This document shows, piece by piece, positions 38,100 to 50,280 of a stretch of 64,000 nucleotides of DNA (position 1 is the first letter of the stretch; each line of letters opens with the position of its first letter). The translations under genes and the position numbers were made by a program. Below the pieces are notes generated by a model. The model did not search any database, was not told the origin of the DNA, and was given only the letters and a program-made list of their open reading frames with translations. Source of the stretch: Staphylococcus phage LY01; sequence record OR836606.1. One strand, 5' to 3'.

Positions 38100-38286
38100 A
38101 TTAGATCTGCTATATAAATTCATGAGTTTAATTTAATTAAAATGAATTTATTCGACTTCGTCATCACTCTGACTTACTTTGCACTTTAAGTTTTTTCGTT
38201 ATAAACTACTTCAACAGAAAGCTTTAATCAAAGCAGAGGTTAAAGCTCTTAAGTCATCGCATTTGGACATTTAGAGGAATAAGACC
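38100..38286 (-). ncRNA. Predicted TnpB omega-RNA scaffold / IS right end, with the guide abutting terL exon 5
   Basis: Immediately 3' of the tnpB stop; stem-loop AGCTTTAA-n12-TTAAAGCT plus further structured sequence; an omega-RNA is expected for IS605 TnpB loci. Confidence 0.4.
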
Positions 38287-39456
38287 TCATTTAGCCTGCC
38301 CAACAAAACGCTTACCATACAGTTTTAAATTGACAGCAGCGTTATAATCTCTATCCATTTTATGTCCACAATCACAGGAATACCATCTATCTGATAGTTT
38401 CAACTTATCTTCTTTAGTTAGAATTTGGCCACAATTAGAACATAATTGAGTTGATGGAAACCATCTGTCAGCTACAATAATAGTATTACCATTGCTTTCA
38501 GCTTTTTGTTCAAGTAAAGTCCTAAACTGTCTCCAATTGGACTGTGCGATTGATTTGGATAGTTTTCTATTTTTAATCATATTTGAAACCTGTAAATCTT
38601 CAATAGTTATATATTGATAATTGTTAATCAAGTTAGTAGTAATCTTATGAAGATAATCTTTTTTAATATTATTAATTCTATACCATACTTTTTGTATTTT
38701 GGTTTTCAATACATTGTATTTATTAGAACCATAAACTTTTTTAGATAATCTTTTTTGGTAGTATTTGATTTTATTATAGAGTGAGATTAGTTTATTATTT
38801 AATGAATGGTATTTTTTAAATTTACCGAAATCATCATTAATAATAGCTAAATCTTTTACACCTAAATCAATACCTACATGACTATTGTTATGAATTAATT
38901 TTTTACTGTTATCAACTTTCATTACTATCGAAGCGAAATACCTACCAGCATATTTGGATATAGTTACTTCTTGTATAGAATTATAATCTTTGTTTAAAGG
39001 TTCTTTCATTTTAATTAATGAATTTACACCACGCAATTTAAGTTTATTATTTTTCTCACCTTTAATTTGAATAGCGTAAGGATCTTTCCTATAGAACCTT
39101 GCTCTTAATTTAGATTTCTTTTTAGATTTAAATTTAGGATATTTACCATATCCTTTCCACATCATATTAAATGCTTTACCTAGATCTTCTGTAGAAGTTT
39201 CAATTATCATGATAATTTGATCTTTCTCCCAATCTTCTTTACATTTTTTAAGTTCATCACGAACTCTACGATGAGTTGGTTTTGGTAAAGATTTATCAAT
39301 TTGATAATTATTCCACATATATTTCCATTTATTAAGTGCCTTGTTATAAATATAACGACTATATCCAAAAGCTTGATTAAATATCTCTCGTTGTTCTTTA
39401 TTAGGTTTCAATTCGATTTTTATAGATTTGTACATGTGATTTTCACCTCGATTCAT
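38287..39456 (-). CDS. tnpB: TnpB (IS605 OrfB family RNA-guided endonuclease)
   Basis: N-terminal ELKPNKEQREIFNQAFGYSRYIYNKAL. RuvC-I HVGIDLGVKDLA, RuvC-II ITIEDLQV, zinc finger CSNCG...CDCGH, RuvC-III DRDYNAAVNL. Confidence 0.9.
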   Translation of the reverse strand: MNRGENHMYKSIKIELKPNKEQREIFNQAFGYSRYIYNKALNKWKYMWNNYQIDKSLPKPTHRRVRDELKKCKEDWEKDQIIMIIETSTEDLGKAFNMMWKGYGKYPKFKSKKKSKLRARFYRKDPYAIQIKGEKNNKLKLRGVNSLIKMKEPLNKDYNSIQEVTISKYAGRYFASIVMKVDNSKKLIHNNSHVGIDLGVKDLAIINDDFGKFKKYHSLNNKLISLYNKIKYYQKRLSKKVYGSNKYNVLKTKIQKVWYRINNIKKDYLHKITTNLINNYQYITIEDLQVSNMIKNRKLSKSIAQSNWRQFRTLLEQKAESNGNTIIVADRWFPSTQLCSNCGQILTKEDKLKLSDRWYSCDCGHKMDRDYNAAVNLKLYGKRFVGQAK

Positions 39457-40037
39457 ATTTCTAAATGATTTAGAATTTATAATTCATTGTTTAATATATC
39501 GAGGTAAAAATTATTTTAATTAAATTAAACTCACGAATTCCAGAAATCCCTTTCAGGTTCTGTTAAATAGCAAGACTATATCATGATCCATTAAATCAAT
39601 GGACCCCTCGCACTTCGAAAAACTTCTGATGAAGTTAATCTACTCTACTCACTTCACATAGTATTTCAACTATGCTTATTCAGGTTAATCAAACCTGTGC
39701 TTTCGATAGTCGTTGAACGTTTATCCATCATGTGGACACTTCGCTGCTAGACTTCCCATTGTTTACAAACTTTAGCGATCTAGGGTTTTCACCTAGACTT
39801 GTTTTCAGCATAGTTCATCTTAGAGATTTTTTCTGTCTTTCGACTGCATGTCACGCTATCCATTACTGGCATACGTTGTAGCTCTCTAAGCTTTAGGGTT
39901 TTACAAGCAATTCACGAGGTATTTTTACCACTAATTTCATGAATTAAAATTAGTTTAATTTACTTATATAGTAGCAGAGCGTGAAACATGAATTAATAAG
40001 AATTTAAGTCTTAATTCACTTAAAATATCTTAAATTA
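39457..40037 (-). ncRNA. Group I intron ribozyme portion of the IStron
   Basis: On the minus strand: P GAATTGCTTGTAAAACC, Q AAAACAAGTCT, R GTTCAACGACTATC, S CATGATATAGTCTTG. Confidence 0.65.
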
Positions 40038-41330: not shown

Positions 41331-41634
41331 CATAGGTCATTATGTTAACTATATTTAAAAAATATAGATCAGACTATATCATACTCATATAAATAAGTGA
41401 ATATATTTAGTCGTTGAACACTATAATTAGTGATGCTGATTAAGATAATAATCTATTCCAGCAATTAATATTCTTTTACTACTGCAACTATCTACAGTAG
41501 AACCACGCTATTTTAGACTATATCTTCAATTTTATAATTGTCTTTTATTTAGTCGTTGAACACATATGTGATGCTGATCAAATTAAATAATTTGTCCCAG
41601 CAATTAAAAAGATTTATAGCAAGCCATGATATTA
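41331..41634 (-). ncRNA. Composite intron in terL: two tandem group I cores (D at ~41480-41634, C at ~41331-41500) with no exon between them
   Basis: D: the intron starts TAA after the exon ...AGCAGGT, IGS GGCTTGCT, P/Q/R/S, P9 ctactg..cagtag. C: P AATTGCTGGAATAG follows immediately, then Q/R/S/P9. The 3' splice site was chosen to restore the VWLDE frame. Confidence 0.55.
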
Positions 41635-42276
41635 ACCTGCTTTATTTGCACTCTCACTGTTAGTCGGAGGTGAAACTGTTTTAATAGTATTGTTATTACT
41701 AGCTAATTGAAATTCGTTGATCTTATCTCTATCATTTTTATCTCCAAAATTAGCTAATACATATTCAGGTAAACATTTCTCTTTAAATAAGTTTTTAAGA
41801 CGTTTTAAGTTCTCAGTTGTATCTGAATAAGATTTGTGTGTAAATAACATTGTATAGTTACTACCTACTAATAACATTATCCATGAATAATAACATACTG
41901 CTGAATATGTTTTATAGTGCTGACGTGGAAGCATTATAGCTGTATCTAAATTGTGTAACATACAAAATGTCATCGCCATATTACCTCTATGAAGTTCATA
42001 CATAACCTTACCGCCAGGAACAGGAACTCTTATAACTTCCCTTAAATAAAACCATATATTAATTTTAGCTTCCCTTAATACACGGGTTTTCATTTCATCA
42101 GAAAGTTCAGGATCCCAAGGATCTACTCCTACAAGATTTTTATCATATAGAGTTAATGGAATCCCATAATTTCTGACGTTGTTCTTCTTAAGATCCCTAG
42201 CCACTCTTAAAAAACTAACATTATTAGTTTTATAATCGTAATAAACTTTTTTCTTTAATTTTGGTTTAATTGTCAT
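41635..42276 (-). CDS. terL: Terminase large subunit, exon 1 (ATPase N-terminal region, Walker A-like PRQHYKT)
   Basis: MLPRQHYKTYSAVCYYSWIMLL P-loop-like; the ORF terminates at the intron's first codon, TAA. Confidence 0.7.
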
Positions 42277-48078: not shown

Positions 48079-48180
48079 ATCCTATTCATATTTTCATTAA
48101 GGTTAATATTCTATTGTTAAAATTGCTTATCAAACATTTAAATATTCTAAATTTAATATATGAAAGGAAGTTAAATAAAT

Positions 48181-48404
48181 ATGTCTAAAGATATAAAAGC
48201 TTATCTTATTAATGAATCTAACACAACTTCTCAACCAGAAGTAGTTCAAGATAATAATAAATCGGTTAGATTCATTGCTGAGTTACAAGAAGCTGATAGA
48301 CAAAACCGTAATGGTCGTGTTTATCGTAAAGATGTTATTCAAAGTGGTTTAGATAGTCCAGTAATACAAGAAAAATTAGCAAGAAAAACTTTTTATGGTG
48401 AGTT
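48181..48404 (+). CDS. Prohead core protease (T4 gp21-like), exon 1
   Basis: NGRVYRK and YGE(L)HP align to T4 gp21 RLYPK / GELNHP; the exon ends GTGAGTT, which pairs with the IGS GGCTCAC. Confidence 0.65.
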
Positions 48405-48561
48405 TTAGGTTAAATGGCTCACATTAAATTATATTAATTGCTGGAAAAGATTATTATCTTAATCAGCATCAACTTAATACAAGTTGTTCAACGACTAAAT
48501 ATATAGCCTAGATGATATAGTCTAACCTTTATTAAAATGATAAAGAATAATAATTTGCAGG
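48405..48561 (+). ncRNA. Miniature group I intron 1 in the protease gene (157 nt)
   Basis: Plus strand: P AATTGCTGGAAAAG, Q AATCAGCATC, R GTTCAACGACTAAA, S GATGATATAGTCTAA, P9 ctttat..ataaag. Confidence 0.75.
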
Positions 48562-48817
48562 ACATCCTTTAAGTGATGAACCTAAACGACAAATGTATAT
48601 TGATCAACGTAATATTTCTCATATCGTTACTAGAACATGGTGGAATGGTAATAAATTAATGGCAGAAGTAGAAACGGCACAAACAGCAGCTGGTAAAGAT
48701 ATGAAAGGTTTAATCGGACAAAAGTCTGACGTATCTTTCTCAATGCGTGGTTTCAGTAAAATTAATAGAACACCTTCTGGCGAAGTTGAAGTTACTAAAC
48801 CTTTAAGATTAATCTGT
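48562..48817 (+). CDS. Prohead core protease, exon 2 (HPLSDEPKRQ...TWWNGN...SFSMRGFS)
   Basis: Aligns to T4 gp21 MWWKGN and the catalytic-Ser region SSRGLGS; ends phase 0 before the TAA that starts the intron. Confidence 0.65.
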
Positions 48818-48998
48818 TAAATTGTAGCAGCTTTATATAGAAATATATATTGAAAAAGAATATTAATTGCTAAGAAGTTTAATTAAGCCAATTAGCATCA
48901 ACTTAATACAAGTTGTTCAACGACTAAATATATTTACTCTTAATAAGAGTATGATATAGTCTAATCTTAATAGTAAGATCTATTAAGTTAATATAATG
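48818..48998 (+). ncRNA. Miniature group I intron 2 in the protease gene (181 nt), P4 covariant
   Basis: P AATTGCTAAGAAG with Q AATTAGCATC: compensatory GCUAAG/UUAGC versus GCUGG/CCAGC in the other introns. R GTTCAACGACTAAA, S ATGATATAGTCTAA. IGS GCAG pairs with exon CUGU. Confidence 0.75.
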
Positions 48999-49025
48999 TA
49001 CGATAAAATAAACCTTGTCGCTTCT
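48999..49025 (+). CDS. Prohead core protease micro-exon 3 (27 nt; YDKINLVAS)
   Basis: In-frame segment between intron 2 (3' end at G48998) and the TAA that starts intron 3. Confidence 0.5.
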
Positions 49026-49188
49026 TAAAGCAATTTAAGAATGATAAAACTATTAATTGCTAAAATCTTTTATTAAAGTAATTAGCATCAACTTAATAAA
49101 AGTTGTTCAAAGACTAAATATAGTTTATCCTTTTATAGGATAATGATATAGTCTGATCTATATTATACTAATATAGATAACATAAATG
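49026..49188 (+). ncRNA. Miniature group I intron 3 in the protease gene (163 nt)
   Basis: P AATTGCTAAAATC, Q ATTAGCATC, R GTTCAAAGACTAAA, S ATGATATAGTCTGA, P9 ctatattatactaatatag; ends ...CATAAATG. Confidence 0.7.
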
Positions 49189-49542
49189 TGGGTAGTAATT
49201 CCATCTCATCAAGATTCTTACATTCAAAATATTATTTCAGAAGGACACAATAATTATAATCCTAATGATTTACAAATGGTAAATGAATCAATTGATATGT
49301 TCACTAATGGTAAAATTACTGAATTTTCTCCTAGAGAAGTTTTAACTTATATTAAAGAAAATTCAGATAATGTAAAATACATTGCTGAAGATATGGGGTT
49401 TGCTGGAGTTGATGAATCTAATATCAGTTATGATAAAGGATCTCAATTAGCTTCAATTAGAGAAAGTAATAAAACTATTAAAGTTTTCTTAGAAGAATCT
49501 GTTCTTAATGGACTTGATGATTTCTATAGAAACTTTAAATAA
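49189..49542 (+). CDS. Prohead core protease, exon 4
   Basis: WVVIPSHQDSY... in phase 0 after intron 3. Confidence 0.6.
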   Translation, partial: WVVIPSHQDSYIQNIISEGHNNYNPNDLQMVNESIDMFTNGKITEFSPREVLTYIKENSDNVKYIAEDMGFAGVDESNISYDKGSQLASIRESNKTIKVFLEESVLNGLDDFYRNFK

Positions 49543-49566
49543 TATGTATGGATGTGATTAAAGGTT

Positions 49567-50280
49567 ATGTTAACCAATACAGAAATACTTAATTATATTG
49601 AACGTGATGTAGGTTTCATGTTCACTGATTTAGAATTAAAACCTGATGATATTATTAAAACAGTGGAAAGATTCACTATTCCTACATTTAGTAAATTTCA
49701 TCCTAAACAAGAAAGAGTAATTGTAAAACCAGAAGATAAAGTAGAAGGTACTACAAATATATATTATATTGATTCTGAAAATCCTATAGTTAATATTAAT
49801 AGAGTAATTGGAGCTAATAATCCTATTACTAATTTAACAGGGTATGCAGGTAACATGAGCTCTTATGCAGGATTTGCTATGGGTAACCCAATTGATGGAC
49901 AAATGATGTCTGATTTAATGGCGATCAATTTATCTCCATCTACTTTTAGATATCATCATCCTAATAAAATAGAAATATTGAATTCTGCTGTAATCGGTTC
50001 AGTTAATTTACTAATTGTTCTAAATACTTATCATGATAAACATTTTGGTTCTATACCAAATAATATGCATGATTATTTCTTAGAATTAGCTTCTTATGAT
50101 GTTCAAATATCATTATATGCTATGAGAAGTAGATTCCAGAACTTACAAACTACTTTTGGAGAGTTAAATCTTAATATGGATGATTTACGTGAAGCAAAAG
50201 ATAAACGTAAAGAATTAGTAGAAAAGATGGAAAATTATTCTATATTTAATAGTAACAGAAAGAAATTATATTTCGGTTAA
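49567..50280 (+). CDS. Hypothetical protein (237 aa)
   Basis: ORF with RBS. Confidence 0.55.
   Translation: MLTNTEILNYIERDVGFMFTDLELKPDDIIKTVERFTIPTFSKFHPKQERVIVKPEDKVEGTTNIYYIDSENPIVNINRVIGANNPITNLTGYAGNMSSYAGFAMGNPIDGQMMSDLMAINLSPSTFRYHHPNKIEILNSAVIGSVNLLIVLNTYHDKHFGSIPNNMHDYFLELASYDVQISLYAMRSRFQNLQTTFGELNLNMDDLREAKDKRKELVEKMENYSIFNSNRKKLYFG

Follow-up and report, generated by a model that had tools for sequence, protein, structure and literature searches.

A stretch of 64,000 nt from Staphylococcus phage LY01 (sequence record OR836606.1; this whole stretch is called the window below) carries on its plus strand three open reading frames (ORFs), at 48181–48408, 48593–48820 and 49186–49542, exactly where an initial annotation of the sequence had listed them. 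The analysis reported here leads us to conclude, with high confidence, that these ORFs belong to one prohead protease gene split by three ORF-less group I introns, and that joining its four exons would give an 843-nt ORF for a protein of 280 aa, one of the exons being only 6 nt long. In the public LY01 record, two of the window ORF products are found as identical GenBank proteins, annotated as 'hypothetical protein' fragments.

Identity of the split gene

The gene is of the T4 gp21 type and represents the single gene for the head-maturation (prohead) protease in LY01, a Madawaskavirus and AR9-like jumbo phage of Staphylococcus. The initial annotation had called it T4 gp21-like, and the profile search bore this out: the spliced product scores 35.4 bits against Pfam PF03420 (Peptidase_S77), for which the gathering cut-off is 27 bits, over residues 37–178, while none of the individual ORF fragments reaches the cut-off by itself. 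The spliced product also matches two PHROG families of head maturation proteases, phrog_207 with 78 bits and phrog_3014 with 74.8 bits. Direct similarity to T4 gp21 is very low, and the phmmer alignment with this protein (PDB 5JBL) is weak (E = 0.05); it pairs GESGHP of LY01 with GELNAP of T4 gp21, FSMRG with VASRG, and CYDWVVIPS with VGVDAVWGPS. In the same weak alignment (E = 0.05), His77, Ser136 and Asp163 fall on the triad positions of 5JBL, Asp163 being aligned with the Asp of GVDAV in T4 gp21. A His/Ser/Asp triad has been described for T4 gp21 (PMC5694885), and all three residues are invariant across our 10-sequence family alignment. Taken together, the profile match, the alignment of the triad and the orthologues without introns settle the identity of the predicted protein at the sequence level.

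The surroundings of the gene are those of a head-morphogenesis module. In annotated relatives the genes for the major head precursor and the large terminase subunit (terL) adjoin the protease gene, and in the window terL lies at ~37.7–42.3 kb, consistent with such a location. The orthologue of phage DC4 was found in virions by liquid chromatography–mass spectrometry (PMC10638138). The protease gene is single-copy in every locus compared, and LY01, Madawaska, Machias, AH12 and PB50 (the last four being our loci L002, L005, L007 and L008) are named phages with complete genome records that carry introns in this single-copy gene, which speaks for the viability of intron-bearing phages.

Exons, introns and splice junctions

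All exons and introns described here lie on the plus strand. Exon 1 (48181–48403) comprises codons 1–74 and the first base of the Ser75 codon and ends in U48403, as defined by the ORF and by colinearity with the intron-less gene of phage PALS_2. It is followed by intron 1 (48404–48557; 154 nt), with the pair U48403·G48417 at its 5' splice site and the terminal omega-G at G48557. Exon 2 (48558–48817) contains the rest of Ser75 and runs from Gly76-His77 to Cys161, so that it holds both His77 and Ser136; it ends in U48817, which pairs with G48827 of intron 2 (48818–48998; 181 nt; omega-G G48998). Next comes the micro-exon TACGAT (48999–49004; 6 nt), which encodes Tyr162 and the catalytic Asp163, where the intron-less orthologues read LICYDWVV. 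Intron 3 (49005–49188; 184 nt) has the pair U49004·G49017 and the omega-G G49188, and exon 4 (49189–49542), again defined by the ORF and PALS_2 colinearity, runs from Trp164 to Lys280 and the stop codon. All three introns are preceded by a 5' exon ending in a U that is wobble-paired to a guide G in P1, and all three end in G. In-frame stops are encountered 0–7 codons inside each intron, as in other phage introns.

The four joined exons form an 843-nt ORF that aligns without gaps to the intron-less PALS_2 gene, sharing 808 of 843 nt and 277 of 280 aa with it; the 35 nucleotide differences bring three amino acid changes, no frameshift and no stop codon. DC4 and SA1, which like PALS_2 have an uninterrupted gene of 843 nt, are also gaplessly colinear with the ORF spliced in silico. 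Precise excision in silico restores a continuous and conserved gene.

Each of the junctions can be placed by comparison with relatives. Junction 1 is GAGU|...UUUG|CAGG and reads E-S-G-H-P, where the intron-less orthologues have ...FYGESGHPL...; in phage MarsHill, which has a different intron of its own 4 nt upstream, the DNA across the junction 1 point is uninterrupted, and its sequence, GAGTCAGGT, equals the ligated LY01 junction. The ligated junctions would be GAGU|CAGG, CUGU|UACGAU and UACGAU|UGGG, and the spliced protein is predicted to contain the junction peptides TFYGESGHPLSDEPK and LICYDWVVIPSHQDSYIQ.... Over junctions 2 and 3, the intron-less orthologues read ...LICYDWVVIPS.... Madawaska and PB50 have intron 3 without intron 2, and in both ...TGTTACGAT is contiguous, with the hexamer joined to exon 2 and the intron inserted at GAT|TGG. 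Since intron 3 begins after GAT in these two phages, the micro-exon is the 6-nt TACGAT. A direct join of exon 2 to exon 4 that leaves out the micro-exon was also tried and rejected, as it scores only 32.2 bits against Pfam and loses the invariant Asp.

The initial annotation had proposed a different set of junctions, with E-L-HP at junction 1, a 27-nt micro-exon encoding YDKINLVAS, an unusual U-A base pair for the 5' splice site of intron 3 and a product of 286 aa. The frame is indeed open through 49025, and the proposed junctions are of the U-ending/G-ending type, but the intron-less orthologues read ESGHP and CYDWVV with no insert of seven residues, these seven being absent from all homologues, and the site of intron 3 is GAT|TGG in Madawaska and PB50. 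The YDKINLVAS exon is a read-through into intron 3 up to an in-frame TAA. The longer product also scores lower, with 31.7 vs 35.4 bits against Pfam, 66.6 vs 78 against phrog_207 and 60.3 vs 74.8 against phrog_3014, a cost of 3.7 bits for the Pfam profile and of 11–14 bits for the PHROG profiles. Finally, the GCUUCU/AGAA pairing invoked for the 5' splice site is not P1 but the base of the P2 stem of intron 3, and a canonical P1 with the normal wobble pair U49004·G49017 is present. Judged by the intron-less orthologues and by Madawaska and PB50, two of the three proposed junction sets, at junction 1 and at the end of the micro-exon where intron 3 begins, are therefore wrong, and this layout has next to no probability; the number and type of the plus-strand mini introns and the existence of a micro-exon were called correctly.

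Ribozyme cores of the three introns

A group I core had been predicted on the plus strand in each gap between the ORFs, and each of the gaps gave a local match to Rfam RF00028 when positions 48100–49600 (plus strand) were scanned: 40.5 bits for intron 1 (E = 1.7e-8), 33.3 bits for intron 2 (E = 2.3e-6) and 27.8 bits for intron 3 (E = 1.1e-4). The gaps share the block ATTAATTGCT..AGCATCAACTTAATAMAAGTTGTTCAAMGACTAAATATA..ATGATATAGTCT, corresponding to the P, Q, R and S elements of the group I core. The R-element motif occurs eight times in the window vs 0.66 expected, and none of 100 shuffles reaches eight. In the Rfam alignments, the consensus is matched at AAUUGC..GGAAA, UAAUC.GCA, GUUCAA.GACUAAA and GAUAUAGUCUAA, and the conserved J3/4, J4/5, J6/7 and J8/7 as well as P7 all agree with the group I consensus. 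A covariance model built from the mini-intron core (model R1) scores 125.4 bits for intron 1 (48426–48557), 124.8 for intron 2 and 130.6 for intron 3, and finds exactly eight copies in the window, namely the three of the protease gene, four in terL and one in nrdE.

Covariation was assessed in 13 copies aligned with MAFFT, eight from the window and five from Madawaska and Machias. For the P3–P9 structure, including the P3/P7 pseudoknot, 95.7% of the cells are standard pairs and 21 of the 40 pairs show double-sided changes, counts that take in paralogous as well as orthologous copies of shared ancestry and in which a misregistering of P3 and P8 by MAFFT in three copies lowers, rather than raises, the pairing percentages. 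In the controls, none of 500 shuffles reached any of these measures, and sliding the 3' partners gave 30–44% pairing. The guanosine-binding P7 is 100% paired and nearly invariant across the 13 copies. The predicted group I core fold is thus strongly supported by covariation.

In intron 1, P1 pairs 48398–48404 with the internal guide sequence at 48416–48422; there is no P2, and in the place of P8 stands a linker of 5 nt, CCUAG (48507–48511), where the PB50 copy keeps a P8 hairpin. The P8-less form is common to LY01, Madawaska, Machias and AH12. We also noted full complementarity between the linker and UUAGG in the P1 loop (48405–48409; intron bases +2 to +6). Madawaska, Machias and AH12 have the same two segments, which therefore give no covariation signal, and a chance complementarity is plausible.

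In intron 2, P1 pairs 48814–48819 with 48825–48830, P2 spans 48834–48849 and is closed by a GAAA tetraloop, and P10 pairs 48999–49001 with 48824–48826. This P10 covaries, being GUA/UAC in LY01 vs AUA/UAU in Machias and in L131, a contig from the Logan assemblies; the guide is GUAGCAG where the micro-exon starts with UAC and AUAGCAG where it starts with UAU (Machias, AH12 and L131). The compensatory change from G-C to A-U thus provides independent support for the 3' splice site of intron 2. In intron 3, P1 pairs 49001–49006 with 49015–49020, and the Rfam alignment itself pairs CGAUAA with UUGUCG; P2 is an 8-bp stem (49022–49029 with 49034–49041) with a GCAA tetraloop. Compensatory changes are seen in its P9, CUAUAUU/AAUAUAG in LY01 and CUGUAUU/AAUACAG in Madawaska, and in its P6, which is CCUC/GAGG in PB50. 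The L2 loops are GNRA in all variants: GAAA, GUGA or GUAA closes P2 of intron 2, and GCAA or GUAA that of intron 3. These two introns share 74% identity, and the G+C content of the introns is 19–23%.

Distribution among relatives

The region of LY01 is 94–95% identical to Madawaska, MarsHill, PALS_2, DC4 and S6 and ~84% identical to Machias and AH12. We surveyed intron occupancy in eleven loci, from ten named phages and the contig L131, and found five insertion sites in the protease gene, each independently occupied (positions are those of the coding sequence). Site 219/220 holds a 1.17-kb intron with a LAGLIDADG gene in MarsHill and S6. Intron 1 is at 223/224 in the window, Madawaska, Machias, AH12 and PB50; intron 2 is at 483/484 in the window, Machias, AH12 and L131, and is absent from Madawaska and PB50; intron 3 is at 489/490 in the window, Madawaska and PB50. 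The fifth site, 494/495, is occupied in Machias and AH12, and no site is occupied in PALS_2, DC4 and SA1. The sites fall into two clusters, within 5 nt beside the codon of His77 and within 12 nt around that of Asp163. Among the loci compared, sites 483/484 and 489/490 are combined in the LY01 window only, which gives the 6-nt exon, and Machias and AH12 have an 11-nt micro-exon instead, TATGACTGGGT.

Presence or absence of an intron at a fixed site is accordingly polymorphic among close relatives. The three LY01 introns contain no meaningful ORF and no homing endonuclease gene, and the LAGLIDADG gene is found only in the unrelated 1.17-kb intron at 219/220. The pattern of occupancy suggests that the introns are relics of mobile elements by which the codons around the catalytic His and Asp were invaded repeatedly.

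The Ser75 codon is AGT in PALS_2, DC4 and SA1 and T|CA in the intron-bearing alleles (48400–48403 and 48558–48562), and at the micro-exon site of terL (41507–41494) the Arg and Ser codons are AGA and AGT in DC4 vs CGT and TCT in the window. In both genes, the synonymous codon differences of the intron-less alleles sit exactly at the insertion sites. Several base changes are required to switch serine between AGT and TCA, so that a simple precise deletion does not account for the intron-less alleles. The sequences next to the insertion sites may have been co-converted, or recoded against homing.

In IMG/VR, the same R/S core motif is present in at least 120 loci, many on contigs of 200–400 kb, and the compact cores are often in tandem. 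Our IMG/VR loci L010–L089 (for example L085 12382–12696, L063 1253–4203 and L053 6898–7701) include compact R1-matching cores of 96–206 nt from P3 to the 3' end, in dense tandem arrays, and in L085 an exon of ~14 nt, UGACACUUUCCCAU, lies between two cores. In huge phages, mini introns arranged in tandem around tiny exons seem to be common. A scan of IMG/VR for the tandem junction ATGTAYGAYAAAATAAACC itself gave one chance match only, on an unrelated contig, and the strict family pattern (P4...P4'...R) had no match in IMG/VR, where the looser R...S motif is widespread.

Proposed splicing and use of the micro-exon

In the mechanism that we propose, the pre-mRNA would carry group I ribozymes of 154, 181 and 184 nt, all three without an ORF, and each would be excised from the late transcript by two-step, guanosine-initiated self-splicing. 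Precise ligation would then restore the 843-nt ORF and with it the 280-aa protein and its His77/Ser136/Asp163 triad, as colinearity with the intron-less genes shows. As introns 2 and 3 are only 6 nt apart, TACGAT must be ligated on both sides. Bases 1–3 of the micro-exon (UAC) would form P10 with the guide of intron 2, and bases 3–6 (CGAU) would form P1 of intron 3; these roles are read from the sequence, and that of P10 of intron 2 is backed by one compensatory change. Simultaneous docking of the micro-exon in both active sites is unlikely, because P10 and P1 share C49001 and the reactive phosphates are 6 nt apart. Most likely, introns 2 and 3 would act sequentially, with the two ribozymes competing for C49001.

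Several observations weigh against our reading of the locus as a gene interrupted by three functional introns. Splicing of all three introns is deduced from sequence comparison. All three introns score under the RF00028 gathering threshold of 50 bits, which is an operational cut-off and not a structural definition, and scans of the whole 64-kb window with RF00028, at the gathering threshold or at E <= 0.01, returned no match; the low scores of the introns arise because peripheral positions and those of P2 and P8 in the 253-position model are missing. An active group I core would not usually lack P2 and have a 5-nt linker in place of P8, as intron 1 does; the A+U content of the helices is very high, and we know of no case in phages or bacteria in which two group I ribozymes flank an exon of 6 nt.

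If splicing had been lost from at least one intron, such as intron 1 with its missing P8, the locus would be a decaying pseudogene. The sub-threshold Rfam scores would fit such decay, as would the absence from intron 1 of the P8 hairpin that the PB50 copy keeps. The exons, however, differ from PALS_2 at 35 nt but in only three amino acids, with neither a frameshift nor a stop, and Madawaska, Machias and AH12, all deposited as named phages with complete genomes, retain intron 1 in the same form without P8. A prohead protease is, moreover, essential for head maturation in tailed phages, and no second copy of the gene is found in any of the loci compared. We consider a pseudogene exceedingly unlikely.

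A more serious alternative is that excision takes place in vivo but the introns lack autonomy and need help, from a chaperone or maturase-like protein of the phage or host or from the ribosome, to fold and splice. All three lack peripheral stabilising elements, intron 1 being without P2 and P8, and their cores are A+U-rich (the G+C content given above). Reduced organellar group I introns rely on proteins such as CYT-18 and Mrs1, and the in-frame stops 0–7 codons into the introns would fit the ribosome-assisted folding described for T4 td. On the other hand, the agreement of all four joining segments and P7 with the group I consensus speaks for intact cores, the GNRA L2 loops kept in introns 2 and 3 suggest tertiary contacts made by RNA alone, and no candidate cofactor was identified. 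Dependence on a cofactor is thus possible, if on balance unlikely.

The strongest form of self-splicing would hold that the three ORF-less introns (154–184 nt, intron 1 without P2 and P8) are autonomous ribozymes smaller than any characterised, that the CCUAG–UUAGG pairing docks P1 of intron 1, and that the pair flanking the micro-exon fires in a fixed order, as both need C49001. As a whole, we regard this conjunction as rather doubtful.

The micro-exon could also at times be skipped as a functional output of the locus, giving a product without Tyr162-Asp163 that would be dead as a protease and serve as a core scaffold only. Loss of 6 nt keeps the frame, and the two flanking introns share 74% identity. 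Skipping is on record for the 23-nt exon of Twort orf142 and was the major pattern for two identical Tetrahymena introns around a 24-nt exon (PMC10136302), and a level of 47% has been reported in a Bastillevirinae polymerase gene (PMC11878797). Against this, the P3 strands are not interchangeable, with C-G in intron 3 vs A-U in intron 2. A conserved skipped isoform is also unlikely because the 11-nt micro-exon of Machias and AH12 would shift the frame if skipped and because most relatives are without one or both of the introns. Functional skipping is therefore very unlikely in our view, and ligation of the micro-exon on both sides is the reading that we retain.

Other introns in the window

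The terL gene, on the minus strand at 42276–37694, is interrupted by four mini introns that belong to the family described above. Intron A (41634–41508) is only 127 nt long, ends right after P7 and has no P9; introns B, C and D are at 41493–41338, 41267–41108 and 41035–40875, all on the minus strand. The exon between introns A and B is 14 nt long (41507–41494; CGTGGTTCTACTGT), and the junctions yield a product colinear with the intron-less TerL of DC4. A further mini intron, of 162 nt, is found on the minus strand in nrdE, encoding the alpha subunit of class Ib ribonucleotide reductase (33489–33328; ...INQLG|QRNGAG...). Genome-scale Rfam scanning finds 0 of the at least eight group I introns in the window; short stretches and relaxed filters are needed.

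A larger, group I-like ribozyme follows the terL exon that stops at 40035, at ~40050–38104 on the minus strand. Its R element is GTTCAACGACTAT (~39717) and its S element GATATAGTCTTG (~39582), and AATTGCTTG is found at ~39912; no Rfam match and no canonical U/G splice-site pair were found for it. Directly after this ribozyme comes an ORF of 389 aa resembling TnpB/IS605 OrfB (39456–38287), and the last terL exon resumes near 38106. The ribozyme together with the TnpB ORF looks like an IStron inside the phage terminase gene. Matches to the S element at 39356, 39573 and 53348 were considered as members of the mini-intron family and rejected, as neither model R1 nor Rfam matches them; the one at 39573 belongs to the larger ribozyme ahead of the TnpB gene.

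Implications for annotation and ribozyme biology

In public records, the protease gene is scattered under inconsistent labels, and genome-scale Rfam scans miss its introns. The records of AH12, S6 and LY01 list the protease fragments as separate hypothetical proteins, and in that of PB50 exon fragments are labelled 'terminase large subunit' and 'homing endonuclease'. The GenBank protein of Machias has 277 aa and reads ...LIC-RV-IPS..., the 11-nt micro-exon and the catalytic Asp having been missed, and the GenBank proteins of Madawaska and Machias both have EAGHP where ESGHP is expected.

For RNA biology, a natural and closely related pair of ribozymes that must share six nucleotides would offer a compact test bed for ordered splicing vs exon skipping, and, if active in vitro, such short self-splicing introns would be of interest for work on minimal ribozymes and circular-RNA engineering. 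For evolution, the five sites around the catalytic His and Asp codons provide a clear-cut case of active-site codons being targeted by introns repeatedly.

Comparison with known systems

Disruption of the prohead scaffold/protease gene by introns has already been published for this clade by Korn et al., who presented a protein alignment with no ribozyme or micro-exon analysis. Their annotations concern the same gene, clade and intron family and include sites 223/224 in Madawaska and Machias, 489/490 in Madawaska and 483/484 in Machias; they differ from ours in placing junction 1 as EAGHP. This placement, found in the GenBank proteins of Madawaska and Machias, is wrong, because the 5' exon would then end in G and the intron in U. 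In the paper on DC4, no introns were found by Rfam.

T4 gp21 (PF03420/MEROPS S77; PDB 5JBL) belongs to the same family by profile score and has the same triad positions, whereas the LY01 protein has a C-terminal extension of ~100 aa. T4 gene 21 is not known to contain introns.

The introns of phage Twort, at ~250 nt, are much larger than those of LY01, and no insertion of the P7.1/P7.2 type between P3' and P8 was seen in the alignment of the mini introns. The Twort gene orf142 is a close parallel, being a structural gene of a staphylococcal myophage with three self-splicing group I introns and a short exon between two closely related ribozymes (PMC10136302, citing Landthaler and Shub, 1999). 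Its exon has 23 nt and lies between similar IA2 introns, compared with 6 nt in LY01, and both splicing and exon skipping were shown there by experiment, whereas splicing in LY01 is predicted. The shortest inter-intron exons of phages and bacteria cited in the same paper are the 23 nt of Twort and 34 nt in the 23S gene of Coxiella (PMC10136302).

Still shorter exons between group I introns are known from organelles, with 3 nt in Podospora and 1 nt in the cox1 gene of placozoans (PMC8971849, citing Cummings, 1990; Osigus, 2017). These are likewise tandem group I introns with exons of a few nucleotides that need ligation on both sides, but they are mitochondrial, with large and often protein-assisted introns and no coupled translation, whereas LY01 would have ORF-less introns of ~180 nt in a phage mRNA.

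With regard to size, the huge gut phages of the Jug group have ~18 small group I introns per genome, averaging ~206 nt, and resemble LY01 in having many short ORF-less introns in essential genes (terL, nrd and polymerase) (PMC12363816). The LY01 introns, of 154–184 nt and in one case in terL of 127 nt, are below this mean, and no micro-exons or protease gene are described in the Jug phage paper (PMC12363816).

An intron of the bacterium Azoarcus, in pre-tRNA-Ile, has ~205 nt and is generally given as the smallest group I intron able to self-splice; like the LY01 introns it has a minimal core with few peripheral elements and an L2 GNRA tetraloop. The LY01 introns are 20–50 nt shorter, and intron 1 is without P2 and P8; their activity is a prediction. 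Neither a 6-nt exon nor an intron without both P2 and P8 was described in the literature searched. The kind of arrangement seen in LY01 is thus already known, and what LY01 adds is the shortest internal exon that we found between two group I introns of a phage or bacterium, an intron without P2 and P8, and corrected junctions for the public records.

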